A stretch of 64,000 bases of DNA from a virus. Lineage: Duplodnaviria > Caudoviricetes. The stretch's first letter is position 1, and every line of letters begins with the position of its first letter. Shown one piece after another: positions 16,805-54,239 of this stretch. Made by a program: the position numbers and the translations under genes. The DNA lies in the IMG/VR virus record IMGVR_UViG_3300025601_000007; one strand, written 5' to 3'. The notes under the pieces are model-generated. The model did no database searches. It saw only the letters and a list, made by a program, of their open reading frames with translations, and was not told where the DNA came from.

Positions 16805-16808
16805 TTTT

Positions 16809-28323: not shown

Positions 28324-28329
28324 TGCTTT

Positions 28330-28608: not shown

Positions 28609-28638
28609 TCTAATGTACGTTTAGATTATACTTTGGTT

Positions 28639-29181: not shown

Positions 29182-29230
29182 GCAAAGGTAGTTTAAAGTT
29201 TAAACATAAAGTTTTTTTATAAAACAACAA

Positions 29231-30414: not shown

Positions 30415-30424
30415 TGTAATCTCT

Positions 30425-30763: not shown

Positions 30764-30768
30764 CGTTG

Positions 30769-31614: not shown

Positions 31615-31707
31615 AGTGTGATTCCTTTTTACGAATATACGCAAACAAGCTACTAAAGTTACGATGATGGTGTCTTTTTTTCAAACTATTTACTAAAAAA
31701 ATACACC

Positions 31708-31803
31708 ATGAGCAAAGTGAGTATTTATGAATTAATTGACCCCTTGACGCAAAAACCGAGATATGTGGGGAAAACAAAAAATAGATTATCGAAGAGAATT
31801 TAA
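31708..31803 (+). pseudogene. GIY-YIG homing endonuclease N-terminal remnant
   Basis: MSKVSIYELIDPLTQKPRYVGKTKNRLSKRI*; CTATTTAC upstream. Confidence 0.7.
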
Positions 31804-31833
31804 GAACTCCTTATTTTCATGGTGCGCCATGTC

Positions 31834-32478: not shown

Positions 32479-32956
32479 GGATAACTTGTGGTTCTGGGAT
32501 TGTGCATTTTCTCTCGTCAATTTCTTTTTTAATCCTCTTTCTTACGATGTGATGAATTTTCTTGCTTGTTCCATCTTCATTAACTCTGACAAACGTTGTT
32601 GTGGCAGTTCCAACTGGAGATACATCGCCATTTTCCACATCTACTTTAAAGATATCCATTTCAAGAGTGATAGATGTGTTTCCGATGTTGATTACCTCTC
32701 CAAAGAAATGAATTACATCACCAGCATTCACCTTTGATATAAATCCAGTTTCTGTGTGAACAGTTCTAAGGAGCTTAGTTTCAGATTTCTCCATAAGATG
32801 CATAGCTGCGGCTTTATCCACCCACGCCATCATCTCTCCTCCGAAAAGGGCGTCTCCGAAACCAAGTTCTTTCTGGAGACATAGCTGCTTCCAGATTCTT
32901 GTTTTAGTGTAGTCTTCAGGGAGTTTTCCTTGCGGTATTTTTCGTCTCTCTCTCAT
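32471..32956 (-). CDS. HotDog-fold acyl-CoA thioesterase (YciA-like)
   Basis: LFGGEMMAWVDKAAA; F...V..GD; IGNTSITL. Confidence 0.85.
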   Translation of the reverse strand: MRERRKIPQGKLPEDYTKTRIWKQLCLQKELGFGDALFGGEMMAWVDKAAAMHLMEKSETKLLRTVHTETGFISKVNAGDVIHFFGEVINIGNTSITLEMDIFKVDVENGDVSPVGTATTTFVRVNEDGTSKKIHHIVRKRIKKEIDERKCTIPEPQVIHE

Positions 32957-34188
32957 GTTATAATTGGTTTTTGTTGTGGAATTTTAAGAGTCAACTTAGC
33001 AAGCTTAATCTCATGCTTATCCCCTATCTCTTTACCGACACCATCGGCTATCTTAATCACGTATACCCAATCGCTATATCGATTCACAGACATACTTGTC
33101 ATTTTCATGACTTGATTCATTGGTTTCACTTCTGGGATATCACAAGTAAACCATGTTCCTATTCCTAAAGAAAAAGAAATTTTTAAATTCTTTGAGTGGT
33201 CTCGCATCTCTTCGCACAGCTTCATTGAGTTAATTCCATCGCTGTAAACATAATTCTTCGATGTCGGGTCTATTCCGAGTTCTTTGTATTTGTTGTAGAA
33301 CTTTAGAGTCCACGCTTTCCAGTCTCCACTGTCTTGACGAGCGCCGTCGTAAAGGCGTCCGTAATAAGTGTCAAATGACGCAAGGAAAGAATCTGTTGTG
33401 AATGTGTCTGGTAAGACGATTCCCATTCGCCCCTGGTATACGCTGTTCCAATTCTCCATCGCACGGTAATTCGCCATCTTGTAGCCATAAACACCTGCGT
33501 GAAACTGATGCCATTCGTGACCAGTTGTGCCAATCATTTTGAGATTGTGCTTCATCGCAATGTGCATGTTTGAGGTTCCGATAAAAGCATTACCAATTGC
33601 ACGGCTTAAAGCTTTAGTGACTTGTTCGTGAATTTGGTAGCTATGTCGTCTGCGGCTTCCGAAGTCAACGTGAGGGATAACTTTCATGTTTAGGTGAGTC
33701 CCTTTCTCTGCTGCAACAGTTGTTGCCTTTTGGACATTAATATCATCTAGCCCGTTTCCAGTCATTTCGTGAAACAATTCAGAAACAGTAGATAGGACAG
33801 GAATTTCCCATCGCATTGCGCTTACGGTTGGACCCTCAGCTTTTATGCGAAGTGTATTTTCTTTTTCGTCGTGAAATATTTGTAGCTCTGCTGGATTGTA
33901 CCTAAAATTGATTAGGTAATCGATTGCCGCCAAAGGCAAGTGAGGAGCATTGTCAAGAAGGTATTTCTCTGCGTTATCTGGAGCTCGAAGCTCTCCGTAT
34001 TGGTTGAAAAGATACTGGAGCGCTGCGCCAAATCCTTTTGGCCACTGAACATCGCTTCTAAGAGTGTATTCAAAACTGCAACGTGAATCAGGGAACTTCA
34101 TCATGTATGCCCATTGCATATTAATTTTGTAAAAATCGCAGTCAAATGTGCTCTGCGTATACTTTCCTTGATTAATCTTTGGTTTCAT
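32953..34188 (-). CDS. pncB: nicotinate phosphoribosyltransferase
   Basis: DFYKINM, DFGSRRRHS, GTTGHEW, DTF, RQDSGD, YSDG, GIGT (PncB-type, not Nampt-type). Confidence 0.93.
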   Translation of the reverse strand: MKPKINQGKYTQSTFDCDFYKINMQWAYMMKFPDSRCSFEYTLRSDVQWPKGFGAALQYLFNQYGELRAPDNAEKYLLDNAPHLPLAAIDYLINFRYNPAELQIFHDEKENTLRIKAEGPTVSAMRWEIPVLSTVSELFHEMTGNGLDDINVQKATTVAAEKGTHLNMKVIPHVDFGSRRRHSYQIHEQVTKALSRAIGNAFIGTSNMHIAMKHNLKMIGTTGHEWHQFHAGVYGYKMANYRAMENWNSVYQGRMGIVLPDTFTTDSFLASFDTYYGRLYDGARQDSGDWKAWTLKFYNKYKELGIDPTSKNYVYSDGINSMKLCEEMRDHSKNLKISFSLGIGTWFTCDIPEVKPMNQVMKMTSMSVNRYSDWVYVIKIADGVGKEIGDKHEIKLAKLTLKIPQQKPIIT

Positions 34189-34243
34189 ATGCTAAGATTT
34201 GTGGTTATACAAATGTACGCATATTCGCCCAAAAAGTTACGTT

Positions 34244-34837
34244 TTATCGGTTGTTAATCATTTTCACTATTTCATCCTCGTCTATGCTTTTAAGACTGGT
34301 GTATTCGTGTTTTGGTTGGTCTTGAGAAGATATACACTCAATAACTTTGAGGTATTCTCCTTTTGTCACACCAAGCTTTACGTAAGAAGGCATTTGCCTA
34401 TCCCCACCTGCCATGAATATAAGGTTCTTATCATTGAGTTGAACGATATCCCAGTTTTCATAATCCAGGGATTCAGTTTCTCCTTCTTTATTTTTGGCGA
34501 ATGTCTTTCCAGAGTATTCGATTTCATAGAAGTCGATTTCCTGCACAATCTCCTTTCCGTCGTCATCTTCGTCTTTTTCACAGAAGTTAGAATTAAACAA
34601 AGCTTTTAACAAGCCTGAGTCAACGAACTCTACTTGCTCGGTGTGTTTTGCTACTGAATCCTTTATCTCTTCTATGTTGGAGATGGAATCAAAGACAAAT
34701 TTTACTACTTTTCCGCTTCGCTTGACTGCTTCAACGACATCTTGAAGAGATTTGATTCCTTCTGGTTTTGTACCAGTTTCAACCTCAAGCTGCTTCAATA
34801 GTGAGTCCACTTGAGACTCAAGACTGTATTTATTCAT
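34244..34837 (-). CDS. acidic hypothetical protein (start corrected to MNKYSLE)
   Basis: ECF promoter 34858-34885 upstream. Confidence 0.75.
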   Translation of the reverse strand: MNKYSLESQVDSLLKQLEVETGTKPEGIKSLQDVVEAVKRSGKVVKFVFDSISNIEEIKDSVAKHTEQVEFVDSGLLKALFNSNFCEKDEDDDGKEIVQEIDFYEIEYSGKTFAKNKEGETESLDYENWDIVQLNDKNLIFMAGGDRQMPSYVKLGVTKGEYLKVIECISSQDQPKHEYTSLKSIDEDEIVKMINNR

Positions 34838-34920
34838 GATTTGCTGTTGTTGCGCAATATACGGTGAAACGAAAAAAAGGTTACAAAAAAGGAAAGACCT
34901 AGTCAGACTAGGCCTCACCT

Positions 34921-35976
34921 TTAATTCAGTACCTCGTTGGCGACTCCTGGCATGTTTGCCTCGTCTCCCCACGCTGTTACGTTGAGCCATCCGCCGTTTA
35001 CTTTGGCCTGGATGATTGGGTCATCATCTCTAAACCATTTATCGACAGCTGGTGCTTCAACTCGAAATCCTTCTGGGACAACTCTAAACTTTTGGTCAAT
35101 CTCAAACCCTTCAAGCTTTAGCATGTGCTTTGGCGCGATGATTTTGAGTTCAATCTTGTGTTCGGTCATTCCCTTTTGCAGGCGAGCGACAGCTTCAATT
35201 AGAACTGGGTGCATACCCAAGCTTTCTTTGGCAATGGCGCCTTCTTTTTTAGCGAATCCCATAACATCTGAGTTATTTATAAATTTGTGTGCGTGTAGCA
35301 CTTTAAATGCAGACAAGAACATTTCTGCGTACTTGTCTAGTACTTTCTTGTTAAGCTTTCCGCCTTCGTGCTCCAAAATACCCGTCATTCCCTCAGTGGA
35401 CCGACTTCCTGCGCTTCTTTGGTAAGACTCCCATTTTGCAATTACAGTCTTAATTGGTTCCCAAGCGGCTTTCTTGGTGAGCTTTTTGTTTCCATAGGCT
35501 TTTGCGAAGTCCCATGTTCTATTTTCACCATCAACCTTGATAGAGAACTCAGTCACGTCTAGTGATTCCATAAAAAGGCTTTCCAAGAATGGTTTAACTT
35601 TTTCATCTCTAGAGAATGCTATCAAATCCTTTTGATTCTTGACAGGGATGCTGTCAATGTATATGTTCACGGGGGCTTGTACGAGGCCGAACTTTTTACA
35701 CAACTCAAAAACTGCGTCCTCGGTCATGAATTTATAGTTGAAAGCTATCTCTCGATACTTGGTAATGATGGCTTGCAATTCTTTTACTCTCTCCAGTTCT
35801 TTTGGCTCAAGTTGACGAGCTTGCTTGAAACTGGTGAACCCAAGAGATTTGAGTTCCTCTACACTTTCAATCACTTTTGTGTCTTGAGCATCTGAGAGAA
35901 TTTGCTTGGCATTTTCCAAGAGTTTCATTTCGGCTGTAGAAGCCTCGTAGTGAATTTGTTCTATGATGCTGTTCAT
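34921..35976 (-). CDS. hypothetical protein (start corrected to MNSIIEQ)
   Basis: Long ORF; DPI...V.GGW..V.AWGDEA C-terminus. Confidence 0.8.
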   Translation of the reverse strand: MNSIIEQIHYEASTAEMKLLENAKQILSDAQDTKVIESVEELKSLGFTSFKQARQLEPKELERVKELQAIITKYREIAFNYKFMTEDAVFELCKKFGLVQAPVNIYIDSIPVKNQKDLIAFSRDEKVKPFLESLFMESLDVTEFSIKVDGENRTWDFAKAYGNKKLTKKAAWEPIKTVIAKWESYQRSAGSRSTEGMTGILEHEGGKLNKKVLDKYAEMFLSAFKVLHAHKFINNSDVMGFAKKEGAIAKESLGMHPVLIEAVARLQKGMTEHKIELKIIAPKHMLKLEGFEIDQKFRVVPEGFRVEAPAVDKWFRDDDPIIQAKVNGGWLNVTAWGDEANMPGVANEVLN

Positions 35977-36067
35977 GGTGTTGTTTTTTATAACTAATAC
36001 ATAAAAGTACAAAAAAAGGGACTCATTCCGAAGAAAAGTCCCTCTTATTTTCGATAAATCAATCTTA

Positions 36068-36952
36068 TTAAAGAATCTTAGGGAAATTCTCATCGCGTCT
36101 AAAATTTAAACGCTCAATTCTCTTTCCTTCACGAGCGAAATTCCAGGCTTTCCCGATAATTGCGCACTTATGAAAAACAGTGAATGTGTTTAATTTATCA
36201 CCGTGCATACGAATCAATCTGTTTCTCAAGTGAAACGCTGGCGAGTCTGTTTCCATGCCTGTTCCAATCGCTACGCTTTGCATGAAAGTGCGAGTCTGGG
36301 ATGTGTGTTTTCTGTAAAACATGTAATACATGCCACAAAAGATGCGACCTGAAACAAATCGCTGAGGCATTGATTGCCAGATTTTATGAGCTTCCCCAAT
36401 CACGTCTACGAAGTCTGTTCTAGATTTCACAAAGTTGAGAACATCCAAATTGTCGTAGCGAGAGCTTTTCATGCTACCCGTTGCTACTCCTTTTAATCCT
36501 GACTCCAATGACATAACCATTTTAGCAGCAGCGGATACGACAGATGCGTTCTTATAGCCTTGAGAACTCAAGACATCTGCACTGTTCCTGCCTTTGCCAG
36601 TATCAATTGTGTGAAATGTGTCTCGGTGGATTCCGAAAGTCACATTAGACTGCAGTTCTTTCCCTGTTATAACAACCGCTTCTAATCGATGTTGGCCATC
36701 AAGCAAGTTGCCATACTCATCAAAAACAATGGTGTCTCCATTAAGCTTCCATTTGCCATCCTTAATTTGATGGACCAGAAAATCCAGGTTTTGTTTTGCA
36801 ACGTTTCGATTGCTTACGTTGGTTTTTAACCATTCACGAGCAAGTGAAGGGGTAATTGTTAATTCAAAAGTCTCTCCCACTTTGATTGTGTCGGAATTCT
36901 TCCCATCAATCATTGTAGATATAATTCCGATAGGCAAACTAATCTTATTCAT
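36068..36952 (-). CDS. ParB-like (DGQHR) domain protein
   Basis: NRNV, LLDGQHRLEAV, IDTGKGR. Confidence 0.8.
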   Translation of the reverse strand: MNKISLPIGIISTMIDGKNSDTIKVGETFELTITPSLAREWLKTNVSNRNVAKQNLDFLVHQIKDGKWKLNGDTIVFDEYGNLLDGQHRLEAVVITGKELQSNVTFGIHRDTFHTIDTGKGRNSADVLSSQGYKNASVVSAAAKMVMSLESGLKGVATGSMKSSRYDNLDVLNFVKSRTDFVDVIGEAHKIWQSMPQRFVSGRIFCGMYYMFYRKHTSQTRTFMQSVAIGTGMETDSPAFHLRNRLIRMHGDKLNTFTVFHKCAIIGKAWNFAREGKRIERLNFRRDENFPKIL

Positions 36953-37105
36953 ACGCTGTGTTTTAATAAATTACTGTATTAGTGTCCAATATACGTGGAC
37001 AAAGTGAAAAGGTTTCATTATAAGCAAAAACACTGCTTTTGTTTTTAATCACAATCATCTCTATTTATGGTAACCTATTCAGGGGCTTAACGTACATTAT
37101 AGTAA

Positions 37106-38596
37106 TTGAAAGAGAGCAAGATAAATAAAGCTTATAAGAATTTCCGCGACGCAGGACGTGCTGCATTGGATGTGTTAAAAAACGAAGGACCAGAAACAGT
37201 ACACGCTGTTAAATTGCTGTTGAAGCTGGGAGTAGGAAAAAAACTAGAGAAAAGTGAAATGCAGTTTCTAAAAGCGCAGTCTGTTGATATAGGGAAAATG
37301 GTTGCGTTATTTGGTTTGTTTATTATCCCAGGCGGGTCGTTAATTACTTTAATCGCTGCTGAGGGTCTAAAAAAAATAGGAATCAACCCTTACCCTTCAA
37401 ACCAATCACATTTAAGAGAAAACGAAATGATTAGGAAGCAAATACGTAAGATACTAGCTGAACAAATGCTTGGGAAGCAGGAAATAAGGATGCCTTTTGA
37501 CATGTCAATCCCAGAGGACATTTGGGAGCTTAAAAAATACTTTGATGCAGCAGGTAAGAAGCTATATGTGGTCGGCGGTGCCGTGCGTGATGTTTTAACT
37601 GCTAAACAGATAAAGGATTACGATTTGGCGACTGATGCCACTCCAGAAGAGATGATTAAATTTATCCCAAAACACATCTATACAATATTAGAGGCTGGTA
37701 ATATTTTTCCTGTTGTTCACTTGGTTACTCCAGAAAATGGGAGATACGAGATTGCCACTTTCCGTGTTGATGTCGGAACGGACCACCGTAAACCAGAAAC
37801 TCAGTTCTCTACAATCGACCAGGACGTTAAACGTCGTGACTTGACAATGAATGCGTTGTTCTACGATTTAGACACAAAGGAAATTGTTGACCTGGTGGGC
37901 GGAATCGCTGATATCCAGGCTGGAAGGGTTCGGACAGTGGGAGACCCAACTCAAAGATTTGCCGAGAACCAGATAAGAAAGCTTCGAGCATTAAGATTCA
38001 CAGCTAGAATTGGAAGCAAACTGGACCAGAGCATTCAAGACTCTTTGCTTGCCAACCCTTCTTTGGATGAGGAGGCTCCTGAGGCTATTATGGCAGAGGT
38101 GTTAAAAGGTATTGAGCAAGCTAAAAGTGTAAAGCACTTTATGAGCATGGTATTCAAATTTGGTTTAGACAAGTTTGTTTTTAAGGGGATTAAGACAAAC
38201 CCAAGAGGAATTATTGAGGAAAGGGACCCGACTTTGCTGTATGCTTCTCTCTTTAGAAACTCAGACCCAGGAAAATTGAGAGATGCGATTAAATCAAGGT
38301 TGAAATATTCTGATGACTTTGCAAAGCGCGTTATGTTTTTTGTAAAATTTATAGACTTTGAGCCAGGAAGAATTATGGAGTTCTACAAGCTTAATCAAGC
38401 TACAGCACATGTGTCTGAGGAAGATTTGGTGAGAGCAGGGGAGATTCTTGGATACGATAGCAAAATGGTTTCGGCGTTCTTTGAGTTCGCCCCAATTGCT
38501 GACGCAGATGAGCTGATGGCTCAAGGCTTTAAAGGCCAGGAGCTAGGGAAAGCAATGAAGGCGGTTGAGGTGAAACACTTCCTAAACCTATTATAG
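37106..38596 (+). CDS. cca: CCA-adding tRNA nucleotidyltransferase with N-terminal LETM1-like hydrophobic module
   Basis: YVVGGAVRD, DYDLATDA, EIATFR, RRDLTMNA, DLVGGIADI, ENQIRKLRALRF; N-terminal ~105 aa with D.GK.V..F..FIIPGGS. Confidence 0.88.
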   Translation: MKESKINKAYKNFRDAGRAALDVLKNEGPETVHAVKLLLKLGVGKKLEKSEMQFLKAQSVDIGKMVALFGLFIIPGGSLITLIAAEGLKKIGINPYPSNQSHLRENEMIRKQIRKILAEQMLGKQEIRMPFDMSIPEDIWELKKYFDAAGKKLYVVGGAVRDVLTAKQIKDYDLATDATPEEMIKFIPKHIYTILEAGNIFPVVHLVTPENGRYEIATFRVDVGTDHRKPETQFSTIDQDVKRRDLTMNALFYDLDTKEIVDLVGGIADIQAGRVRTVGDPTQRFAENQIRKLRALRFTARIGSKLDQSIQDSLLANPSLDEEAPEAIMAEVLKGIEQAKSVKHFMSMVFKFGLDKFVFKGIKTNPRGIIEERDPTLLYASLFRNSDPGKLRDAIKSRLKYSDDFAKRVMFFVKFIDFEPGRIMEFYKLNQATAHVSEEDLVRAGEILGYDSKMVSAFFEFAPIADADELMAQGFKGQELGKAMKAVEVKHFLNLL

Positions 38597-43272: not shown

Positions 43273-43671
43273 ATGGCAGACAATGAAGGAGTGATAGGGA
43301 ATACAGCTCTAAGCGAAGACACAGTGGTAAAAACTAACGTGAAGACTTTGTTATGGGTTTCTATCGGGTTGTTTAGCTTGTTGATGTCAATGTTCACCGT
43401 TTTTTACTTTGACATGCGCTCCAGAGATGCTGCGACCAATGATAAAATGAAAGAGACTGCTGAGCTTCTAGAAGAAGAAGTTGAAGAAACTGTTTCTGAG
43501 AAGCTTGAAAAGTTTGAAGAAAGGCAACAAGCTATTAAAGACGATATTGGGACCATCAGGGGAGATATAAAAGTCATCCTGGATAGAACAAGAAGGTCAG
43601 GAAACAACGCTAGTACTTCTACTATAAATGATGCCACTCCCCCTCCTTCTAGCTCAGTTCCTCCTGGCTAA
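43273..43671 (+). CDS. single-TM coiled-coil protein (holin-like?)
   Basis: One TM then coiled coil. Confidence 0.65.
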   Translation: MADNEGVIGNTALSEDTVVKTNVKTLLWVSIGLFSLLMSMFTVFYFDMRSRDAATNDKMKETAELLEEEVEETVSEKLEKFEERQQAIKDDIGTIRGDIKVILDRTRRSGNNASTSTINDATPPPSSSVPPG

Positions 43672-45676: not shown

Positions 45677-46804
45677 TCACACTGCTATCGGCGCTTTAAT
45701 CGCTGGTAGCGGGTTGTAGTTTTTCACTTTGATGTCATCCAGAGTGAAGTCGTATATAGACTTGATGTTAGGATTCAATTCCAACGTTGGAAGCCTGGGT
45801 CCTTCGTATTTGCCAATCCTATTTTTTGCTGATTGGCGGTCTATAAAGTAGTCATCTCCAAGAATTGGCTCTTTGAAATCTTTCACCTCCATCATTTTAT
45901 CGACATCCTCTTGGTTCAAGTGGGTGCGATTCAAATATGAGTTCACTTGGTCTCTGTGGTTCACATAAAGATGTGCATCTCCAAAAGTGTGTGTGAACAC
46001 TCCTGGGAGCATTCCAGTGACCTGGGCAATCATGTGTGTGAACACAGCATATGACGCGATGTTAAAGGGCACTCCGAGGAATACGTCGGCACTTCTCTGA
46101 TAGAGTTGGCAATCAAGCCTCTTTGTTGGGAGGCTTTCTCGGTCGTAGCCTAGCTCGATTGCTTTTTCTATTTCTTCATAGCTCAAATCTACAACGTTAA
46201 ACTGGTACATACAGTGACACGGAGATAAAGCCATGTCTGGTAAATCATCTACATTCCAAGAGTTTACGATGTGCCGTCTTGAGTCTGGATTGTTCTTTAA
46301 GCCCTCAATAAGACTCTCAAGCTGATTGGAGGTGCCATTTTTAATTCCAACCCACTTTACCCACTGCTTACCATAGACAGGGCCTAACTCTCCCCATTTA
46401 AGCACCCAAGAGTCATTGTGTGGTCGGCGCTTAATCTCACTTATAAACTCAGCCTGTGTTAAAGGTCTTGTACAGTTGTTTTGAGGGTCTTCTGTATGGA
46501 ATTCATAGTCTGGCTCATCCAGGCTCTCTGCATGCGTTAGAAACGTCTTATATGCCCATTCATTCCAGATGTGAACTTTGTTGTCGACAAGATACTTTAT
46601 ATTGGTATCTCCTTTGATAAACCATAAGAGTTCAACAAATACTCCGCGAGTAAATGTTTTCTTGAGTCCCAGAAGTGGAAATCCGTCTAGAAGGTCGTAT
46701 TGGTTCTGGTATCCGAAGATAGAGTAGGTTCCAGTTCCAGTTCTGTCGCCTTTTAATCTTCCTTTCTCCAAGATGTGTGATACGAGGTCGTTAAACTGTT
46801 TCAT
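45677..46804 (-). CDS. thyA: thymidylate synthase
   Basis: DRTGTGT, ELLWFIKG, LGPVYG.QW, MALSPCH, YQRSADVFLGVPFNIASY, GDAHLY. Confidence 0.97.
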   Translation of the reverse strand: MKQFNDLVSHILEKGRLKGDRTGTGTYSIFGYQNQYDLLDGFPLLGLKKTFTRGVFVELLWFIKGDTNIKYLVDNKVHIWNEWAYKTFLTHAESLDEPDYEFHTEDPQNNCTRPLTQAEFISEIKRRPHNDSWVLKWGELGPVYGKQWVKWVGIKNGTSNQLESLIEGLKNNPDSRRHIVNSWNVDDLPDMALSPCHCMYQFNVVDLSYEEIEKAIELGYDRESLPTKRLDCQLYQRSADVFLGVPFNIASYAVFTHMIAQVTGMLPGVFTHTFGDAHLYVNHRDQVNSYLNRTHLNQEDVDKMMEVKDFKEPILGDDYFIDRQSAKNRIGKYEGPRLPTLELNPNIKSIYDFTLDDIKVKNYNPLPAIKAPIAV

Positions 46805-47352
46805 TAGTCCTTCTTTTCTAAGATTATCCGCTCTGCGTCGGTATCTCTGTTTATAGCTTTCTCACTGGAGAACTTTTTACCATAACGCTTAGTGAGTTTC
46901 TCGATGTTTCTATCCCAAATGGATTTGATGCTCCATTTATGGTTTCTAAACAAGATGGCTAGGTACCAAAAGATGTCACCTACTTCTTCTTTGGCGTTGA
47001 CCAAGTCAAATTCTTTCTGCTTCCACTTGTGATTGTACATCGCCTCTAGAAGTTCTCCTGCTTCTGTGCACACTCCTATGACAGCGTGCATATCTGATTC
47101 TTCTGCATCCACTGATGGTGTGAAGGCTTCGTTTAAACCTGCTGTTTGAACAGGAGTTTTAAATCCTTCAGGAAGGTCTTTGCCGTAATATTTGTGTTTC
47201 TTCATTATATCCAAATCCTCTGTTGCTTTGAGGAATTGTTCGATTGCTCCTTTGAGCTGAAGCTCTCTTTGGTACAATGGGTCTTCTGTGTCGTGGCCGA
47301 ATGACCCGCTAACAAAGGCCTCGCTTTTCTTGAGGTATTTTTTGAATTTCAT
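46804..47352 (-). CDS. MazG-like NTP pyrophosphatase
   Basis: HAVIGVCTEAGELL...KEEVGDIFWYLA...NIEKL..RY. Confidence 0.85.
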   Translation of the reverse strand: MKFKKYLKKSEAFVSGSFGHDTEDPLYQRELQLKGAIEQFLKATEDLDIMKKHKYYGKDLPEGFKTPVQTAGLNEAFTPSVDAEESDMHAVIGVCTEAGELLEAMYNHKWKQKEFDLVNAKEEVGDIFWYLAILFRNHKWSIKSIWDRNIEKLTKRYGKKFSSEKAINRDTDAERIILEKKD

Positions 47353-47378
47353 TCGAAAATGTTGTTGTGTTGCAAGCG

Positions 47379-47409
47379 CAAACATACAACAAGTTGTCTA
47401 TAATTCAAA
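47379..47409 (-). promoter_or_regulatory. Bacteroidetes sigma70 promoter TTTG-N19-TATGTTTG
   Basis: Matches the -33/-7 consensus; other TAnnTTTG boxes near 8522, 12282, 16025, 22542, 26668, 29183. Confidence 0.65.
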
Positions 47410-47479
47410 ATTAGATTATAAAATTGACCCCGAAAGAATGCAGGATAATACGCCGCCATCCCTTGAAAAATAAAACAAA

Positions 47480-47541
47480 ACCAGCTCGCTGTATATAATT
47501 AATGGCTAAAAAGCCACTAACCATATACAATTGTTGTGTGT
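47480..47541. repeat. attC-like site 1
   Basis: accagc-tcgc-tgtatat...atataca-att-gttgtgt. Confidence 0.65.
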
Positions 47542-47544
47542 AAT

Positions 47545-47832
47545 TTAATCTAAGTCTTCGCCCATTCTACAAAGTATATCTTTTAAATCCCATAAAACTA
47601 AATTGCACTTGTTCCATTGGCTAAATGTTTTGTCGTAATCATTCATAAGGTTCTTGCTCTTATACAAGTCTAAGTTTTCGCTCAATTTAGCTTTAAGGGT
47701 TTCTTCCTTTTTAATAAGTTCGTGAATAAAACTACGCCCAACATTGTATAAATACAATACTCGCTCTAGTGCCTCTTCACTACCTATTTCTAATCTTTGG
47801 TGTTGGTCTTTTATATTATCTATTTCTGTCAT
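47545..47832 (-). CDS. cassette hypothetical protein; first ~30 codons lie inside attC-like site 2
   Basis: ORF spans the GTT crossover at 47740-47742. Confidence 0.7.
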   Translation of the reverse strand: MTEIDNIKDQHQRLEIGSEEALERVLYLYNVGRSFIHELIKKEETLKAKLSENLDLYKSKNLMNDYDKTFSQWNKCNLVLWDLKDILCRMGEDLD

Positions 47833-47877
47833 TGTCGTACTGTCATTGTCGTACTGTTTTTATACTTACCGTTACCT
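47736..47877. repeat. attC-like site 2 (long, 142 bp)
   Basis: gcccaac-att-gtataa...ttatac-ttacc-gttacct; contains a 14-bp tandem duplication. Confidence 0.7.
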
Positions 47878-48127
47878 ACAATGGCTGATACTTTAGTTTA
47901 ACCTTATGTTTCGCCAAGTAATCGCATCTACAAACAGCAAGTGTTATATCATCATAGGCACTATCACAATCAGCGTGCGTAACGCTTGGAACCCATACGT
48001 GATAGTTTGGTTTTTGTTTAGTTCCTTCATTACTTACATAATAGCCATTTACATTATGTAATATTCCAAGCTTTACTTCTTCTTCTTCAGTTCCATTTGG
48101 CTCGTATTTATTTTTTATTTCAGTCAT
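47876..48127 (-). CDS. cassette hypothetical protein
   Basis: Stop codon overlaps the R box. Confidence 0.75.
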   Translation of the reverse strand: MTEIKNKYEPNGTEEEEVKLGILHNVNGYYVSNEGTKQKPNYHVWVPSVTHADCDSAYDDITLAVCRCDYLAKHKVKLKYQPL

Positions 48128-48162
48128 TTATCAAAGTTTTTAGTTTATAAAATCGCCACAGT

Positions 48163-48225
48163 AGGTAACAATGTATAAAATTAACCTACGGTCGCTATCG
48201 CTTAATCTTATACTAAACGTTATGC
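48163..48225. repeat. attC-like site 3
   Basis: aggtaac-aat-gtataa...ttatac-taaac-gttatgc. Confidence 0.8.
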
Positions 48226-48310
48226 TCCATGCCTTAGTTCAGTTCTTCGATTTAACATTTGTAATGAAAAACAAAAAGAATTTCGCCAACGCAAAACAAA
48301 GATAATAAAA

Positions 48311-48799
48311 TTATTTCAAATTAATACTATATTTTTGAATATTTTTACTTATATAATCTTTTGCTGATTGGTATTCGTTAATATCATATTCAAAACTTTC
48401 TTCAGATGCAAACTCTTTACCTGCATAATTATCTATCAAATATTTAGAGTTTGTTATGTCCCAATCAATAACTGGATTTATATCATAAAAATCTTCATAT
48501 AAATCTTTAAGTTTTCTAACACCTCTTGCATCAATTATAATATTATGGTTATTTGGATGATAGCAAAAGGCATGAACAAAATTGAAATTATATTCAGCAT
48601 CTTCATCAACATCTTCAAATTCATCGTTAATTACCGCTATTTGATATTGTGGAAATATTTCATTCAACGCAACACAAAATGGAATACATTCACCACTCAT
48701 CCATTGTTCAATATCATTTTCATTTATTGTGTGATTTTCATTCACAAACTGCTTAAAGTTCTTAACTTTATCAATTATTTTACGCATATCTTCACTCAT
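48311..48799 (-). CDS. cassette protein with papain/transglutaminase-like C-H-D pattern and capsid-targeting-like N-terminus
   Basis: GECIPFCVAL, HAFC, IIDARG; KNFKQFVNE; ATATTTAT upstream. Confidence 0.65.
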   Translation of the reverse strand: MSEDMRKIIDKVKNFKQFVNENHTINENDIEQWMSGECIPFCVALNEIFPQYQIAVINDEFEDVDEDAEYNFNFVHAFCYHPNNHNIIIDARGVRKLKDLYEDFYDINPVIDWDITNSKYLIDNYAGKEFASEESFEYDINEYQSAKDYISKNIQKYSINLK

Positions 48800-48907
48800 A
48801 GTTTCTTTATATATAAATATTCGGTTTTTAAAACTCCACTCTAAAATTCTTTTTATTTTTCTTTCGTGTTTCAAATCAACATTATCAGTTAATAAATCGG
48901 CACGAGA

Positions 48908-49001
48908 GCATAACAAGGTGTATAAGAAAGTTTGCTATCAGCATTTGTGGTAATTTGATAGTTTATCTAAGCAAACCTTCTCATACACCCAGCCGTTATG
49001 T
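48908..49001. repeat. attC-like site 4
   Basis: gcataac-aag-gtgtataag..gtttgc...gcaaac..ctcatacac-ccagcc-gttatgt. Confidence 0.85.
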
Positions 49002-49008
49002 GTAAGTG

Positions 49009-49449
49009 TTACATTAGTGATTCCAAATAACCTTTTTCTATAATATTTTCCAAACCATTAAATTCTAAATTAGTATCAATTTTAAAAACATTACCATTAG
49101 ATGGTTCAGAATAATAATCAGTATAACCTTCACCAACCACAATAACATCATTAATTAAAGTACTATTTAATAATGAATCAAAAACTCTATGATAACCATC
49201 AACTAAAAACAATAAATTATTATCAGTTCTCCAAACATTTAAAGGTTCTTTATTACTATGTGATTTTTTACCATCAATAAAATTATTAAAAACCCCCATT
49301 AAACTTCTTTTACTCAATATTAATTCATTTATGTTAATCTTTAATAAATCATAATATTCGTCACTTTCTTCATCATAATATTTATTCTCATTCAAGAACT
49401 TACCAAAGTTCTTAACCTTATTTATTTGTTCTCTCATTTCTTTACTCAT
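49009..49449 (-). CDS. cassette protein with ParB-like (DGYHR) motif and capsid-targeting-like N-terminus
   Basis: LFLVDGYHR; KNFGKFLNE. Confidence 0.7.
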   Translation of the reverse strand: MSKEMREQINKVKNFGKFLNENKYYDEESDEYYDLLKININELILSKRSLMGVFNNFIDGKKSHSNKEPLNVWRTDNNLLFLVDGYHRVFDSLLNSTLINDVIVVGEGYTDYYSEPSNGNVFKIDTNLEFNGLENIIEKGYLESLM

Positions 49450-49482
49450 AACATTTCTTTATATATACATTCCGCTGTGTGT
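49444..49482. repeat. collapsed attC-like site 5
   Basis: actcataac...gctgtgtgt with a very short arm; the ATG of 49009..49449 sits in the R box. Confidence 0.4.
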
Positions 49483-49486
49483 AATA

Positions 49487-49711
49487 CTAGCCCTCGTTTT
49501 CCCATTTATCTAATATTTCTTTGTAATACTTAGATTCTTTTAGGTTTTTGTGTGGGTTATTTTTCTTTAATCCATTCGGCAACGAACAACATAATCCATC
49601 ATGTCCTGTCATGCCATCACCTGTATGGCATCCACATTTACACTCCATTACAACTGCCCACTTATAAAACTCATAATTTACACAAAGAGTACACTTACAT
49701 GATTTTCCCAT
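49487..49711 (-). CDS. cassette Cys-rich small protein
   Basis: CxCxxC, CxCxC, CC. Confidence 0.7.
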   Translation of the reverse strand: MGKSCKCTLCVNYEFYKWAVVMECKCGCHTGDGMTGHDGLCCSLPNGLKKNNPHKNLKESKYYKEILDKWENEG

Positions 49712-49735
49712 ATTTGTAATTTAAATCCGTACTAA

Positions 49736-49796
49736 GCCTAATACTACCTATAATCCATTGCGAAAAGCAACGTATCATAGCCAAAACGCTAACTAC
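49736..49796. repeat. degenerate attC-like site 6
   Basis: gcctaat...tataatccattgc-gaaaa-gcaacgtatcatagcc-aaaac-gctaactac. Confidence 0.55.
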
Positions 49797-49880
49797 AAGC
49801 GGGTGTAGTGGCACGTATTTAATTTTCTGCGTAATCAGAAGAAAAAATAAAAGCCACCCGCTTTTGGTTTTACCAACCAA

Positions 49881-50384
49881 TTAGGTTCTCCACAATTGGA
49901 GTGTTTTTAGTTCATATGCTACAATTCTTCTAACAATTGCATCAAATGTTTTTTTACTGTATTTACCGTCAGGTAAATCACTACCTCTATTCCAGTCTTC
50001 ACCAACTCTGTTTTTTCTAGTTGATGCAATACAGCCTAGGTATCCACTACTTTTATCTGTTGGTTTATATCCAGAAATTGAGTAATAGTGGTCGTTTGTA
50101 TGTAATCTGCAAATAAACTTGTTTTTTCCTGCCTCTTTAGTGTCAAGGAAAATTAATGCTTGCGAGTCAACATTTCCATATCGCACAAGTTCTTTTAACC
50201 ATAAGGCAAACTCAGGAGCAATATCAATAAGTTCTTCGTACTTAATCAATGTTGAATTGTTTTTCTCACTCAACCTTCTTTTTAATTCTTGGTTGTATTC
50301 TTCATTTGTTTCTACTCTTTCCACTTGTGGATGAGCATCTGTTTTTTCGGGGGCATTTTTGCCCGACTTAACATCTTCTTTCAT
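49881..50384 (-). CDS. cassette hypothetical protein
   Basis: 167-aa ORF between sites 6 and 7. Confidence 0.8.
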   Translation of the reverse strand: MKEDVKSGKNAPEKTDAHPQVERVETNEEYNQELKRRLSEKNNSTLIKYEELIDIAPEFALWLKELVRYGNVDSQALIFLDTKEAGKNKFICRLHTNDHYYSISGYKPTDKSSGYLGCIASTRKNRVGEDWNRGSDLPDGKYSKKTFDAIVRRIVAYELKTLQLWRT

Positions 50385-50482
50385 CTTATTATTAATTTAT
50401 TTTTACCCACCCTTCTTTTTATTTTTTAGTGCTTCGTGCTTCGTGCTTCGTACTAGCGTTGGTGGGTCATTAATCCGCCAGT

Positions 50483-50541
50483 AGTTAACACTGTGTAAAT
50501 TGCATAGCGAAAAGCTACGCACCTTATACAAACCGTTATAT
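50483..50541. repeat. attC-like site 7
   Basis: agttaac-act-gtgtaa-attgcatagc..gctacgcacc-ttatac-aaacc-gttatat. Confidence 0.8.
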
Positions 50542-50599
50542 GCAATGCTACGTTTCTGCTTCGTATTAAGTTCTGTGTAAAAACCTTTTAAAAATTTCA

Positions 50600-50905
50600 C
50601 TACTCTTGATATAACACACCACTTTCAAAAGCAATTTCATTTTTTTCTAAATTAACAACACAATTAAATAATTTCCACACATTTGTTTCGTTACTTGGAA
50701 CAACAAAAATTGAATCATATTTTCCACTTACTAAATCATAACCATATTTAGATGTGAAATTAATTTTGAATGGATTCCATTTTTGATAACCAGTTAAAGA
50801 TTTTGAACCATCTTCATTTGTTTTTTCTTCTAAGTAAATTGAAGGGTTTTTTTCAAAACTTATTTGACATATTATGTCACCTAAAATAATCTTACCTGTT
50901 TTCAT
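50600..50905 (-). CDS. hypothetical protein (weak tail-tube gp19-like pattern)
   Basis: KWNPFKINF...W.L.NC; by eye only. Confidence 0.55.
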   Translation of the reverse strand: MKTGKIILGDIICQISFEKNPSIYLEEKTNEDGSKSLTGYQKWNPFKINFTSKYGYDLVSGKYDSIFVVPSNETNVWKLFNCVVNLEKNEIAFESGVLYQE

Positions 50906-50946
50906 TTTTCTTGTTTTATTTTTTCTTGTTTTATTTTACTCACACA

Positions 50947-51222
50947 CTATTTAGTTTCATAAAACATAGCACCTTTTTCCTTAGCGAAATTTTTTATGTA
51001 ATTTATCATTTGTGTTGAATAGTCATTCCCTCTAAATTCTCCATCAACACTAATCATCGCCAAATAAAACTCTTTTTCGAGATTTGGTAAATATTCTGAA
51101 AATTGACCACCGTCATAATAATATTCAATATACCCAATTTTATCATCACCATCTAACTTATATTGTGATTTTTCATTCAAATATTCACGTATAGTTGTTG
51201 CTATAAATTTTCGTATTTCCAT
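50947..51222 (-). CDS. truncated GNAT-like protein with capsid-targeting-like N-terminus
   Basis: ISVDGEFRGNDYS...AKEKG; IRKFIATTIREYLNE. Confidence 0.55.
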   Translation of the reverse strand: MEIRKFIATTIREYLNEKSQYKLDGDDKIGYIEYYYDGGQFSEYLPNLEKEFYLAMISVDGEFRGNDYSTQMINYIKNFAKEKGAMFYETK

Positions 51223-51250
51223 ATTATGATATAATTGATTTTATCACCCT

Positions 51251-52342
51251 TTACTCAGAAACGCTTCCAATGGCCAAGTGAATGTCGTATTCCATCAGTG
51301 TAATTTCTGTCTTATTGCTTTGATTCATCCACATTATTCGGTCATTAATCGAGTTGATTGACTTTTTAAAATACGCAGCTTTCTCGTATGCTTCTGTGTC
51401 TGCAGCTTCTAACATCTTCTCACTTAAATCATTTACAAGGCTCTTTGATTTCTCTAAAAGAAAATTTATAGGTATAGTTTTGTCTTTTAAATCAATCATT
51501 TCTTGCTTTATTTCGTTGCTCAACCTAATTAATTGACTAAAATGTCGAGGAGACTCCAGATTAATCGTGATGTAGTTAGCAAGATTTATATCAGCTGATA
51601 TCTCCAAAATAGACACCACTTTTTTGATAGAATATTTATCGTGGTCCACCGCTTCTTTTGTTTCAAATTGAAAAGTTGCCGTGTATAAGCAGTCTATGTC
51701 ATTAATAAATTCTTTATAATTTGACACACTCTCAAAATACAGCTCTTTCGTGTTTCCTCTGTCGATTCTTCTAAATTTCGCTCCTATTGGTTTAATAAAT
51801 CTTTTTCCAGCGTCTCCTTTTTTTGTGTAAAAATCTCCGTTGAGGTTATAAATAACATCTCCATCTTTGAGGAGCGCTCCTTCTAAGAAAAGGTAAAAGT
51901 ATAATTCAATTGTTTCTCCTACTGGTGGAATTCTAAATTTGCTCCCCAATGGCAATGTGGAGTGAGAGACATCTAATAGAAAATCTTCTTGTGATGTTGA
52001 TTCTTGAGCCATCTCATCTTCTACTTCCTGAGATATGGTGCTTAGCTCTTTTCGAATGGCTTCTTCCAGGCTTTTATTATAACTCATACCAGTTTCGTCA
52101 AGAGTGCTTCTAATCATCTTGTTGCTGACCTTCACACTTTTAGCGTTTTCGAATGTAAGGGGCTCTGTTTGAACAAACCCCATCCTTTTCAACAGCTTGC
52201 ACGCCCTAGCAAAAGAGGGTTGGTCCATAATTTCTGTATTAAGTGTAGGAGAGTTTGGTGAAGTTATGAAAATCATAGTTTCCCTTTCTTCTGAGAAAGG
52301 GTTCTTTATTATACAGTATCCAAGTTTAATATTGCTATTCAT
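51251..52342 (-). CDS. hypothetical protein with C-terminal UVR-like helix
   Basis: MLEAADTEAYEKAAYFK. Confidence 0.75.
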   Translation of the reverse strand: MNSNIKLGYCIIKNPFSEERETMIFITSPNSPTLNTEIMDQPSFARACKLLKRMGFVQTEPLTFENAKSVKVSNKMIRSTLDETGMSYNKSLEEAIRKELSTISQEVEDEMAQESTSQEDFLLDVSHSTLPLGSKFRIPPVGETIELYFYLFLEGALLKDGDVIYNLNGDFYTKKGDAGKRFIKPIGAKFRRIDRGNTKELYFESVSNYKEFINDIDCLYTATFQFETKEAVDHDKYSIKKVVSILEISADINLANYITINLESPRHFSQLIRLSNEIKQEMIDLKDKTIPINFLLEKSKSLVNDLSEKMLEAADTEAYEKAAYFKKSINSINDRIMWMNQSNKTEITLMEYDIHLAIGSVSE

Positions 52343-52350
52343 AATCCTTT

Positions 52351-52367
52351 CTATTTATGATAAATAG
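52351..52367. promoter_or_regulatory. palindromic bidirectional late-type promoter CTATTTAT-G-ATAAATAG
   Basis: Between divergent genes; single CTATTTAT copies at 37061, 38626, 39210, 41246, 42749, 54614 (+) and 55974, 59884, 63933 (-). Confidence 0.65.
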
Positions 52368-52398
52368 CATCAAATTGATAGGTAAACACTTTTAAATC

Positions 52399-53025
52399 AT
52401 GACAAAAACATTCACAGTGGCTAGTGGCAAGCACTATTTTAAAGGATTAAAATTCCAAGAATTATTTTACCCTATCCTTATGCTTGTGGTTACATTTGGA
52501 TTATCTATATCTTCTTTTGTTCAATCTACTTTCGTCTGGGGAGGATTAGGGGCTTCGTTGATATTATATGGATTTGCAAAATGGAAACTGTTAGACCTTG
52601 AGATATTGGCTAGATTCTCACCAGAGTGTCTTTACACTCTAGATACTAATTTTGACCAAATAAACAAGCTTTATGGCTTAGGGGAGGGTGTGCACCACAA
52701 AGATTCTGCAAGATTCGGCTGGAGATGTGTAGACGGTAAGAGTATCGAGATTATAGCTTACTGCTACGTTAGAGGCGAAAGACAAAGTAGAAAGCTTATG
52801 GATTGCTCCACTAATGAATGGTTAAAACTGGATTTGTACATTGAAAAAGGTAAGTATGTGTTTGTCGGCGAAAACGAAGACGGTGAGAAAGCCAGAGTTT
52901 CTATGCCAAGACGAACGGGTTTCTTCTTTGGTAGACTATTTACTTACAAACTGTTTCCTTACTTTGGAGGGTCTATTGGTGCTCCGCACCAGATGTCTAT
53001 AGAGGTGGTGGAAAAAGAAAAATAA
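52399..53025 (+). CDS. membrane-anchored beta-rich protein
   Basis: TM hairpin; INKLYG..H..SARFGWR...AY.Y..G.R. Confidence 0.7.
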   Translation: MTKTFTVASGKHYFKGLKFQELFYPILMLVVTFGLSISSFVQSTFVWGGLGASLILYGFAKWKLLDLEILARFSPECLYTLDTNFDQINKLYGLGEGVHHKDSARFGWRCVDGKSIEIIAYCYVRGERQSRKLMDCSTNEWLKLDLYIEKGKYVFVGENEDGEKARVSMPRRTGFFFGRLFTYKLFPYFGGSIGAPHQMSIEVVEKEK

Positions 53026-53028
53026 GAG

Positions 53029-53301
53029 ATGGAAAACAAAAAATCAAACCTAAGCGAAACTGAAGAAGAAGCTCTGAGAAATTACATTCGTGAGCTCATG
53101 GTCAAAGACTTGGGTGAACATGATGCTTTATACACTAAGCCTAAGCATTGGAAAGACGAAGTAGCAGACCTGAGGACTGATATGACTCAACTATTACAAC
53201 ATATTGAGGATGACGAGTACCAAGATGGAGTTGAAAATATTGACCGAGTAACTTCTAAATTGAAATCTTGGAAAAACAAAATAAAAAAATACCTGAACTA
53301 A
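53029..53301 (+). CDS. hypothetical protein
   Basis: LRNYIRELM motif. Confidence 0.7.
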   Translation: MENKKSNLSETEEEALRNYIRELMVKDLGEHDALYTKPKHWKDEVADLRTDMTQLLQHIEDDEYQDGVENIDRVTSKLKSWKNKIKKYLN

Positions 53302-54239
53302 TCACAGTGCTGGCTGTTGGAGGGAATGGCTGATATATGTGGAGGAAGCTCGAAATGAGGATGATGCTCCTGAATCTTGACTACGTTGTTTTCATCTAAT
53401 TGAGACAGGTCCACAAGGGCTTTGTAGTTTTTTAAATAATGTATTAACAGCAATTCTATTCCGTATGGAGTTAATTCCTTTATTCTCGCTCTCATTGCCA
53501 AATGTAGTTCTTCATAGTCAAAGTTTGCCATAAGCTTCACTAACTCGTACACGTCCGCATCTAAAAATATAACTGGGTCCATGTGTTCATACATCTGCGG
53601 TTGACTCTCTAATATAAACCTCCAGTCCGTTGTTTTAAGCGCTGATAAACTCACTAGGTGTATAAACACCTCTCCCGTTGCTGCAAGCAGCTCTCCTATT
53701 TGAAGATTGTTGAACTTCTGATACGGAACACTCATCACTACTTTTTTTTGAAACCCATATGCCTTTGCAATCTGAAACCCTTGGATGTAAGAGAAGTTGT
53801 ATTTGTGAATGTCTATTTTATCCAAAAAATACTTAAGTCCCATAAGCAGTAAGGAGTGGGCTTCTTCTTGATTGATGCTAGATATCTGAATCCCTAAAAA
53901 GCTTAGTAAATCTGGCCTTCGTTTTAAGATGTGCATAACATCGCCAACTCTAAGCCCTCTTTCTTTTAGCTTAATGTGGCTTTCAATAAACTCTGTTTCC
54001 TGATTGTCAATTAGCCTGACCACACAGCGAACTAATTTTCGTACAGGCATACTATTCCAGAGAACTTTGTCTCGAACATAAGAGCAATCACAAATAGTTT
54101 TATCACTCAACCTCTCAATATCTACTTTTGACATCAAGTGACTCATTTCGCCTTCTTCAAAGTATTCCCAACAGTTTTCTATGAAGTAGTATGTAAATGC
54201 CTCAGCTATGTGTCTGACTTTATCTTTTTTTGAAGACAT
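53298..54239 (-). CDS. hypothetical helical protein
   Basis: 313-aa ORF. Confidence 0.8.
   Translation of the reverse strand: MSSKKDKVRHIAEAFTYYFIENCWEYFEEGEMSHLMSKVDIERLSDKTICDCSYVRDKVLWNSMPVRKLVRCVVRLIDNQETEFIESHIKLKERGLRVGDVMHILKRRPDLLSFLGIQISSINQEEAHSLLLMGLKYFLDKIDIHKYNFSYIQGFQIAKAYGFQKKVVMSVPYQKFNNLQIGELLAATGEVFIHLVSLSALKTTDWRFILESQPQMYEHMDPVIFLDADVYELVKLMANFDYEELHLAMRARIKELTPYGIELLLIHYLKNYKALVDLSQLDENNVVKIQEHHPHFELPPHISAIPSNSQHCD

Follow-up and report, generated by a model that had tools for sequence, protein, structure and literature searches.

The window analysed here is a stretch of 64,000 nucleotides (nt) of viral DNA (Duplodnaviria; Caudoviricetes; IMG/VR record IMGVR_UViG_3300025601_000007), which harbours a row of eight small open reading frames (ORFs), separated by hairpins, between a MazG-like gene (46804-47385) and a gene for a UVR-motif protein (51251-52342). 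The stretch from the UVR-motif gene to MazG is likely to be an orphan, recombinase-less array of integron-like cassettes, located at a variable spot in the genome of a large phage of Bacteroidota. The array is real, although partly decayed, and is one member of a widespread system of Bacteroidota and their phages that works like an integron; the chemistry of recombination we infer. A preliminary description of the same DNA had proposed an integron-type cassette array. The attC architecture and the complementary cassette ends on which this was based stood up, but the array is not a classical IntI integron, given a recombinase that scores below the IntI cut-off, the way in which the hairpins are inherited and the polarity of the genes.

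The sites in the window are members of a covarying, structured and Bacteroidota-specific family of attC-like sites with hundreds of loci in phages and chromosomes. A strict pattern, TAACG-4N-GTATAA ... TTATAC-3N-GTT, derived from sites 2 and 3 of the window (minus strand), matched at least 119 IMG/VR stretches and at least 120 stretches of species genomes, where by our own estimate few matches are expected by chance. Nearly all of the genome matches listed are from Bacteroidota (Flavobacteriales, Cytophagales, Saprospiraceae and others), in agreement with the Bacteroidetes-type cassette system that had been suggested. Read in gene sense, a site consists of 6 variable bases, AAC, an unpaired spacer of 4-6 nt and a stem starting with GTATAA, followed after a variable loop by the end of the stem (TTATAC), a spacer of 2-3 nt, GTT and again 6 variable bases. 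A covariance model, R1, was built from 64 distinct viral sites on unrelated contigs, the window excluded. Across this alignment AAC and GTT are invariant. Loops in the family range from 4 to 94 nt. Pairing was found for 96.5% of the alignment cells, compared to 34-48% when the partners were slid by 1-3 columns, and the covariation score was reached by no shuffle. Three stem pairs occur as all four Watson-Crick types, with 31-39 double changes each, and G.U pairs are found on one strand only. Positions 590398-590451 of GenBank LR745206.1, a 634-kb uncultured phage, likewise resemble a family site (81.5% identity over 53 bases).

Applied to the 64-kb window, R1 gave exactly four matches with E <0.05 (sites 3, 7, 4 and 2), all on the minus strand, and no further match below E 0.8. 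The sites and related elements of the array are as follows.

47480-47541, minus strand: site 1, a decayed terminal site with a strong 18-bp hairpin (47490-47529), the left box ACACACAAC and a 3-nt spacer.
47734-47879, minus strand: site 2, two half-sites; R1 match at 47740-47873 (20.4 bits, E 0.039).
48161-48227, minus strand: site 3, the best family member; R1 48.4 bits (E 1.2e-8) on the minus strand versus 10.4 bits on the plus strand.
48906-49003, minus strand: site 4, a 21-pair stem with three G.T pairs (minus strand) and a long loop; fold z -5.5; R1 22 bits, E 0.016.
49452-49444, minus strand: a lone R'-like box, GTTATGAGT, overlapping the ATG of gene 4 and pairing 8/9 with the left box of site 4.
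49727-49796, minus strand: site 6, a decayed family member whose core GATACGTTGCTTTTCGCAATGGATT recurs in the hairpins of two other loci (L128 and L093).
49797-49870, minus strand: an extra G+C-rich, long-loop hairpin 3' of gene 6 (z -3.5), not a family site.
50481-50543, minus strand: site 7, with which the array begins in gene direction; R1 43.2 bits, E 1.9e-7.

Seven hairpins had been described, of which five, at sites 1, 3 (48173-48213), 4 (48917-48989), 6 (approximately 49735-49772) and 7 (50492-50530), were confirmed by folding; the other two did not hold as hairpins. In all five the minus strand gives the more stable fold, with -10 versus -8 kcal/mol on the plus strand for site 1, -6.6 versus -4.7 for site 3, -19.5 versus -14.3 for site 4, -7.8 versus -3.9 for site 6 and -9 versus -7.4 for site 7. 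Site 2 has no local hairpin fold. It reads on the minus strand GTAGGTAAC-GGTAA-GTATAAA ... TTTATAC-AAT-GTTGGGCGT, with its halves 94 nt apart, and these 94 nt are the start and the first 30 codons of gene 1. "Site 5" (49444-49490) also lacks a hairpin and consists of the lone GTTATGAGT box at the start codon of gene 4, which may be a chance occurrence (by our own estimate ~16% expected, at one mismatch within 1.5 kb). Site 1 is without a proper right box, its GTT being 8 nt away from the stem, and showed a partial R1 match through the stem only (E 7.3); another locus (L018) has a hairpin of this type together with full boxes. Site 6, missed by R1, carries mutated boxes (AGC for AAC, GCTATG for GTATAA and ATT for GTT). 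With sites 1 and 6 decayed, the array is probably frozen in parts. For the right box of site 7, no partner (GCATATAAC, plus strand, 50544-53500) was found in a sensible place at two mismatches or fewer. Elsewhere in the window, hairpin-less boxes on the plus strand at 43330-43358, CTAAC-GTGAAG..C-TTT-GTTATGGGT, give 14.6 bits (E 0.86) against the ends of the site model; this pair may be an empty or collapsed site, or chance.

The two ends of a unit are complementary to each other. Each unit has GTT plus six bases at its start and the reverse complement of these six plus AAC at its end, so that across the gene the 6 bases after GTT are the reverse complement of the 6 before the AAC of the next site. 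This was observed at five other loci (L036, L107, L090, L094 and L128), and a bacterial array (L260) shows the same complementarity. In the window, the 9-mer pairings given in the preliminary description were all recovered: 47871/48161 and 48219/48906 are exact (9/9), 49788/50481 pairs 8/9 with 6/6 at the variable bases, 48995/49444 pairs 8/9 and 47533/47734 pairs 7/9. Among neighbouring viral site pairs, 16 of the 39 are complementary at 6/6 and 23 of the 39 at 5/6 or better, compared to 1% and 5% of random pairs. The two boxes of one and the same site, in contrast, are complementary at 6/6 in 5/145 cases (3%), and the earlier remark that the outer bases within most sites are unpaired agrees with this. 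Exact 9-mer inverted pairs anchored at GTT and lying within 1.5 kb, of which the window holds 22 versus a shuffle mean of 8.9, were rejected as evidence by themselves, being not significant and a single pair not being rare. The significance of the end pairing derives from its position beside independently detected sites and from the family statistics.

The source of the window is a large salt-lake phage of Bacteroidota. That the array lies in a phage genome had been stated before and is borne out by the genes for thymidylate synthase, a fusion of deoxynucleoside monophosphate kinase and HAD, MazG, and enzymes of NAD salvage and RNA repair, as well as by small ORFs with phage homologues; most ORFs of the window match no family. 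Two of the small ORFs of the array have homologues in Polaribacter phage P12002L and Cellulophaga phage phi46:3, the gene for a protein of 167 amino acids (gene 6) is also found on contigs of 0.2-1 Mb, and the metagenome runs containing the stretch are from salt lakes. All genes between 43.6 and 52.3 kb are on the minus strand, and the G+C content drops from ~0.39 to 0.29-0.32 over 48-52 kb. The array is bordered by the following elements.

46804-47385, minus strand: gene for a MazG-like pyrophosphatase (Pfam MazG), conserved backbone and one flank of the insertion.
47427-47446, minus strand: terminator-like hairpin with a T-run, upstream of a Bacteroidota-type promoter (TTTG ... TAnnTTTG) for MazG, the promoter being read by comparison with relatives.
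51251-52342, minus strand: gene for the UVR-motif protein, conserved backbone and the other flank of the insertion.

MazG orthologues (73-84% identity) in related phages are located directly after the UVR-motif gene or two ORFs after it. In three of these phages (L005, L007 and L009) the UVR-motif gene is followed by MazG with only the terminator and the Bacteroidota-type promoter in between, and in a fourth (L006) two different, unrelated ORFs lie between them. Judged from this gene order, the array block is an insertion at a spot that gains and loses genes, as it is absent from three relatives and replaced by other ORFs in the fourth; a comparison of this kind had been proposed in the preliminary description. 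A nucleotide search of GenBank phages with the 10 kb around the array gave no match, and a search of IMG/VR for related loci with MazG and the UVR-motif protein yielded nothing useful.

Units and hairpins were shown to occur elsewhere in other combinations, with breakpoints at the AAC and GTT triplets. Sixteen informative pairs of viral loci on different contigs were compared for shared segments. Eleven of these are common from GTT onward (box, leader and gene) and differ in the hairpin and the upstream gene, four share the hairpin and the downstream part, and one shares the upstream part up to AAC only. The breakpoints thus total 11 at GTT and 5 at AAC, several of which could be placed within ~4 nt of the triplets. 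Crossover of cassettes at G|TT, as put forward earlier, fits the complementary ends but does not account for breakpoints at both AAC and GTT. In the salt-lake metagenomes, contigs from four runs end at 48219, at 48996 and at hairpins, and other contigs carry the hairpins of sites 1, 4 and 7 joined to different flanks with TAAC and GTTA boxes; for the site 7 hairpin the breaks are at TAAC and just after GTT. Several contig joints inside the array were considered as excision products and rejected, because 21-29 bases match on one side and the joints are not cleanly at G|TT. A variant allele of gene 3 in the lake population has 439 bases swapped for 467 others (run X20 record 3). Gene 6, together with its GTTAACTAC box and leader, was found to be 85% identical at a locus of unrelated context (L276), beside what we read as a tRNA-like 3' end. 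This closest relative of gene 6 (L276, 2100-2260) lies near outer-membrane and DUF5675 genes and has kept only the right arm of the hairpin; from its sequence the region looks like the edge of an integrated element.

In bacteria the sites are linked to a specific recombinase. In four of five Bacteroidota genomes the best TIGR02249-like gene is located 1-6 kb from the sites. It encodes an Xer/IntI-like tyrosine recombinase of ~480 amino acids with a 200-amino-acid N-terminal extension, and in Rufibacter hautae (L260) a chain of at least 10 sites ends ~480 nt from the 3' end of the gene for such a recombinase (15945-17399, 484 amino acids). NCBIfam TIGR02249 with its cut-off of 265 bits was used as the test for IntI, a tyrosine recombinase distinguished by an additional domain of its own. 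The array-linked bacterial recombinases score 203-219 bits, in two pieces that leave model positions 182-241 unmatched, and none of the five array-bearing Bacteroidota genomes has a match above the cut-off. Homologues of the recombinase were found in ~15 of the 120 bacterial 8-kb stretches listed. Among site-bearing viral records, 8/50 encode any tyrosine recombinase (PF00589), and 3/16 of those that are at least 90% complete. At two of these loci (L273 and L275) a small recombinase belonging to this family, whose phage form has 200-270 amino acids, is encoded at a distance of 1.5-4 kb from sites; the phage copy of L273 (2311-2910), 2-4 kb away, is 42% identical to the catalytic domain of the bacterial recombinase.

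The window itself has four R1 sites within 2.8 kb and no integrase within 38 kb, and the earlier statement that IntI is lacking was correct for the whole window. Its sole tyrosine recombinase (8527-9822, 431 amino acids) is divergent, with R..HxxR..Y motifs, a match to the PHROG integrase (E 1e-7) and 30 bits against the Xer/IntI model. It was rejected as the enzyme of the array, showing no similarity to the recombinases linked to arrays and being 38 kb distant, next to iteron-like repeats of its own. These repeats, GGGGCTTAAATAGG-like units and three TGTTTTTAGA units, are found in ~400 nt of ORF-free DNA ahead of the gene (8100-9822), which may be an attachment or replication region. An integrase acting in trans or encoded elsewhere in the genome, as suggested earlier, is consistent with the distribution of recombinases among the viral records, but its action in trans is assumed.

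The family follows a strict rule of polarity. The strand reading AAC-5-stem-3-GTT folds better in 77/91 viral and 102/124 bacterial sites, and on this strand G.T pairs outnumber A.C mismatches by 135 to 16 in viral and by 177 to 71 in bacterial sites. The minus-strand bias in G.T pairs described for the window was thereby confirmed and extended to the family. Flanking genes run in the same direction as the folding strand in 191/200 viral cases (95%) and in the opposite direction in 193/216 bacterial cases (89%), so that the ORFs of the window are indeed inverted relative to canonical cassettes. Since the folding strand is constant while transcription is opposite in phages and bacteria, a role of the sites at the DNA level is indicated. 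The folding strand in phages is presumably the template of the lagging strand, where folding would be favoured; weak support for this comes from the plus strand at the array, whose G-C skew is negative.

The following mechanism is proposed. A family recombinase of the Xer/IntI-like type would recombine the folded single strand at the triplets, and circular units would be excised and inserted; as happens in integrons, the two ends of the unit itself would make up the base of the site. Either the host or a part of the phage genome outside the window would supply the enzyme. As either flank of the hairpin can be a breakpoint, crossover is probably usable on either side of it. In phages the folding strand, being the sense strand, would serve as lagging-strand template for genes transcribed in the direction of replication. 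This position would favour folding and a fast turnover of cassettes, and the opposite polarity of bacterial arrays would stabilise them. A more far-reaching proposal, which we put forward tentatively, is that phages may keep an exchangeable gene pool of their own in a 'mirror' form of a so far unrecognised Bacteroidota integron. It would use the same sites on the folded strand, with the genes on the folding strand, crossover at AAC or GTT and independent assortment of genes and hairpins, and its simple Xer-like recombinase would be provided either by the host or by the few phages that encode one.

Several observations weigh against a recombinase-driven cassette array. The 64 kb of the window contain no member of the array-linked recombinase family, and 42/50 site-bearing viral records, including 13/16 of those at least 90% complete, are without a tyrosine recombinase. 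In 0/16 of the pairs of loci compared were only the upstream gene and the hairpin shared, which means that a hairpin does not travel with the gene upstream of it; in this the array is unlike integrons in mechanism, and homologous exchange in the conserved arms would fit as well. No circular cassette or clean excision junction was seen among the assembled salt-lake contigs. The homology of the L276 locus to the gene 6 unit starts inside the right arm of the hairpin and stops 21 nt past the stop codon, before the next left box. Two units of the window array (genes 4 and 5, and genes 7 and 8) are without proper boxes. Only one family member, P12002L_attC1, has been assayed in the literature, and IntI1 yielded no recombinants from it (PMC9892861).

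Some of these points would be expected if the hairpins were mainly regulatory or structural elements of transcripts, shuffled by homologous recombination during co-infection in the manner of the PeSL (promoter early stem-loop) cassettes, with no dedicated recombinase. Most site-bearing phages lack a tyrosine recombinase, breakpoints fall on both sides of the hairpins and sometimes inside them, and metagenome contigs break at hairpins as they do at any repeat. The better-folding strand in phages is also the mRNA strand, and the leaders after the GTT box are conserved. On the other hand, the same strand folds in bacteria though it is antisense to the genes, the bacterial arrays lie 1-6 kb from a specific recombinase, and several breakpoints are within ~4 nt of GTT or AAC. 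The complementary ends of 6-9 bases, unique to each unit, and the invariance of AAC and GTT are left unexplained. The objection that the hairpins are terminators had been foreseen; a terminator scan gave four terminator-like matches, none of which is an array site, the sites lack U-tracts, and Rfam gave no match to them at E <0.5. Promoter-like sites numbered 22 versus 26 in shuffles, in a scan that does not cover Bacteroidota or phage-specific promoters, and a generic AAC-stem-GTT scan of the window was unspecific, with 183 matches versus 154 in shuffles. A transcript-level role with homologous shuffling is considered rather unlikely.

It is still more doubtful that the block is a fragment of a classical integron from a host chromosome, in which the attC sites would be canonical IntI substrates. 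Among 10,705 phages, 17 clusters of attC sites lacking an integron integrase (CALINs, for IntegronFinder at least two attC sites and no integrase close by) were found and interpreted as parts of bacterial integrons carried by phages (Qi, Rajabal, Ghaly, Tetu and Gillings 2023, Front Microbiol; PMC9892861). The AAC/GTT boxes, inner repeats, unpaired spacers and variable loop of the present sites match the attC architecture, and the P12002L family member was called attC by HattCI and its array a CALIN (PMC9892861). Sites of phage PH101 with similar ends (TAACG ... TGTTAT) were recombined with IntI1 (PMC9892861). P12002L_attC1, however, which belongs to the present family by its boxes and by the CGTTTTAATG loop that it shares with many members, was the exception among six phage sites, as IntI1 recombined the other five but not this one (PMC9892861); it lies between two methyltransferase genes, and the next gene shows the same end pairing. 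Furthermore, 0/5 array-bearing Bacteroidota genomes exceed the IntI cut-off, the linked recombinase reaching 203-219 of 265 bits, complete integrons are very rare in Bacteroidetes according to IntegronFinder 2.0, and cassette genes 1 and 2 are of phage type. In bacterial arrays the genes have the reverse polarity, so the block was not simply copied from a host array. The least credible reading of all is that the hairpins are recognised by an HUH enzyme (IS200/IS605 or REP/RAYT type) in single-strand transposition. Conserved hairpins and strand-specific folding would agree with this, but no gene for such an enzyme came to light near the arrays, neighbouring units are separated by a single hairpin rather than each having one at the left and one at the right end, neither complementary unit ends nor AAC/GTT boxes characterise the HUH family, and the bacterial arrays are linked to a tyrosine recombinase.

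The recombinase-less array of integron-like cassettes, as favoured here, carries the following genes.

47545-47832, minus strand: gene 1, 95 amino acids, phrog_31081; the similarity to a P12002L protein starts at a GTT codon (V31), the right box of site 2.
47876-48127, minus strand: gene 2, 83 amino acids, phrog_20712; homologue in Cellulophaga phage phi46:3; ends GTTACCTAC and GTAGGTAAC, 9/9 complementary.
48311-48799, minus strand: gene 3, 162 amino acids from the ATG at 48799; ends GTTATGCTC and GAGCATAAC, 9/9.
49009-49449, minus strand: gene 4, 146 amino acids, no family; lone GTTATGAGT box at the ATG.
49487-49711, minus strand: gene 5, 74 amino acids, Cys-rich; no site separates it from gene 4.
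49881-50384, minus strand: gene 6, 167 amino acids, a widespread phage protein family; ends GTTAACTAC and GTAGTTAGC, 6/6 at the variable bases.
50600-51222, minus strand: genes 7 and 8 (101 amino acids, and a GNAT-like fragment of 91 amino acids); no site between them or beside the UVR-motif gene; absent from L005, L007 and L009.

Pfam and PHROGs assigned to the cassette genes just two families of unknown function and a weak GNAT match. A protein model of gene 6 (mean pLDDT 74.6) found no significant match in the PDB or in a viral structure library. The start of gene 1 sits inside the loop of site 2 (47734-47832), and in a Polaribacter gene (L002, 2490-2530) the corresponding position reads TTTAAAC-GGT-GTTGGTTGT, which is what is left of a right half-site within the ORF. 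Site 2 would supply a swappable N-terminus, since the similarity of gene 1 begins exactly at the GTT codon and the half-site remnant is present in the Polaribacter gene. Genes 3 and 4 are paralogous, with the first ~23 codons and an upstream TATATATAAAGAAA leader in common (48799-48830 and 49449-49480). Tandem repeats are found in two cassette leaders, a 14-nt unit in two copies and the 7-nt GTGCTTC in three (47840-47867 and 50432-50452).

Outside the array, a promoter-like motif (TTTTTTCATCCCAGAC ... AACTCATAA) is repeated at 4437-4480, 7566-7610 and 7835-7880, ahead of small plus-strand genes, in a low-G+C module at 4-10 kb that is embedded among minus-strand genes. Two ORFs of 220 amino acids (2162-2824 and 3544-4206) are apparent tandem paralogues with identical AAC...GTT matches (2222-2323 and 3604-3705). 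The region 25584-38596 encodes auxiliary metabolism, namely an RlaP-like nucleotidyltransferase, an HD/AAA kinase, NAD synthase, nicotinate phosphoribosyltransferase and a poly(A)-polymerase/CCA-type enzyme.

In the prevailing view integrons are essentially bacterial, dependent on IntI and very rare in Bacteroidota, and phage CALINs are occasional passengers (PMC9892861). The present family has a recombinase type of its own and obeys a strict rule of polarity, which is reversed between phage and host; no account of the family, its recombinase or the polarity rule was found in a literature search that left most subscription journals outside. Confirmation of the mechanism would explain how small accessory genes are shuffled in phages of a major marine and gut phylum, those of relatives including DNA methyltransferases as in P12002L. 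It would also widen the definition of the integron and offer a simpler recombinase-site pair for studying the evolution of attC-type single-strand recombination and the genesis of cassettes. The 'mirror' integron, if true, would be a second, phage-centred system of cassette exchange and a living intermediate between Xer recombination and integrons. The window itself gives the exact module borders for eight genes of unknown function.

Among known systems, the PeSL cassettes of T4-type phages, attributed to Arbiol, Comeau, Krisch and colleagues (2010), are reportedly direct repeats with an early promoter that act by homologous recombination. Like the present array they concern small accessory phage genes in hyperplastic regions, bracketed by repeated stem-loops and shuffled between phages; they differ from it in that the array has invariant AAC/GTT triplets and its units each have complementary ends of their own. 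The phage CALINs are likewise integrase-less attC-like clusters in virulent phages, including Polaribacter phage P12002L (PMC9892861), but sites of the present family are frequent in viral contigs, follow a polarity of their own and are linked to a recombinase other than IntI. With integrons the family shares imperfect palindromes, in which AAC/GTT boxes on the outside are joined by inner boxes, spacers that do not pair and a variable loop. Folding is strand-specific in both, each unit holds one gene or a few, poor in promoters, and the ends of a unit are complementary, as expected from cutting a circular unit inside its site; moreover, the bacterial arrays lie 1-6 kb from an Xer/IntI-related tyrosine recombinase. 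The family differs from integrons in that this recombinase is under the IntI cut-off with part of the IntI model unmatched, that no attI or common promoter was recognised in the window array, and that the hairpin is not inherited with the upstream gene, breakpoints occurring on both flanks. The outer boxes of one array site usually pair over only 3-5 bp. The spacers of 5 + 3 nt, whose asymmetry had been set against the 5x5 of proteobacterial attC sites already in the preliminary description, and the inner boxes GTATAA/TTATAC stand against RYYYAAC/GTTRRRY with spacers of ~5+5. Finally, the bacterial arrays of the family keep the canonical polarity of integrons, whereas the phage genes are opposite to it.

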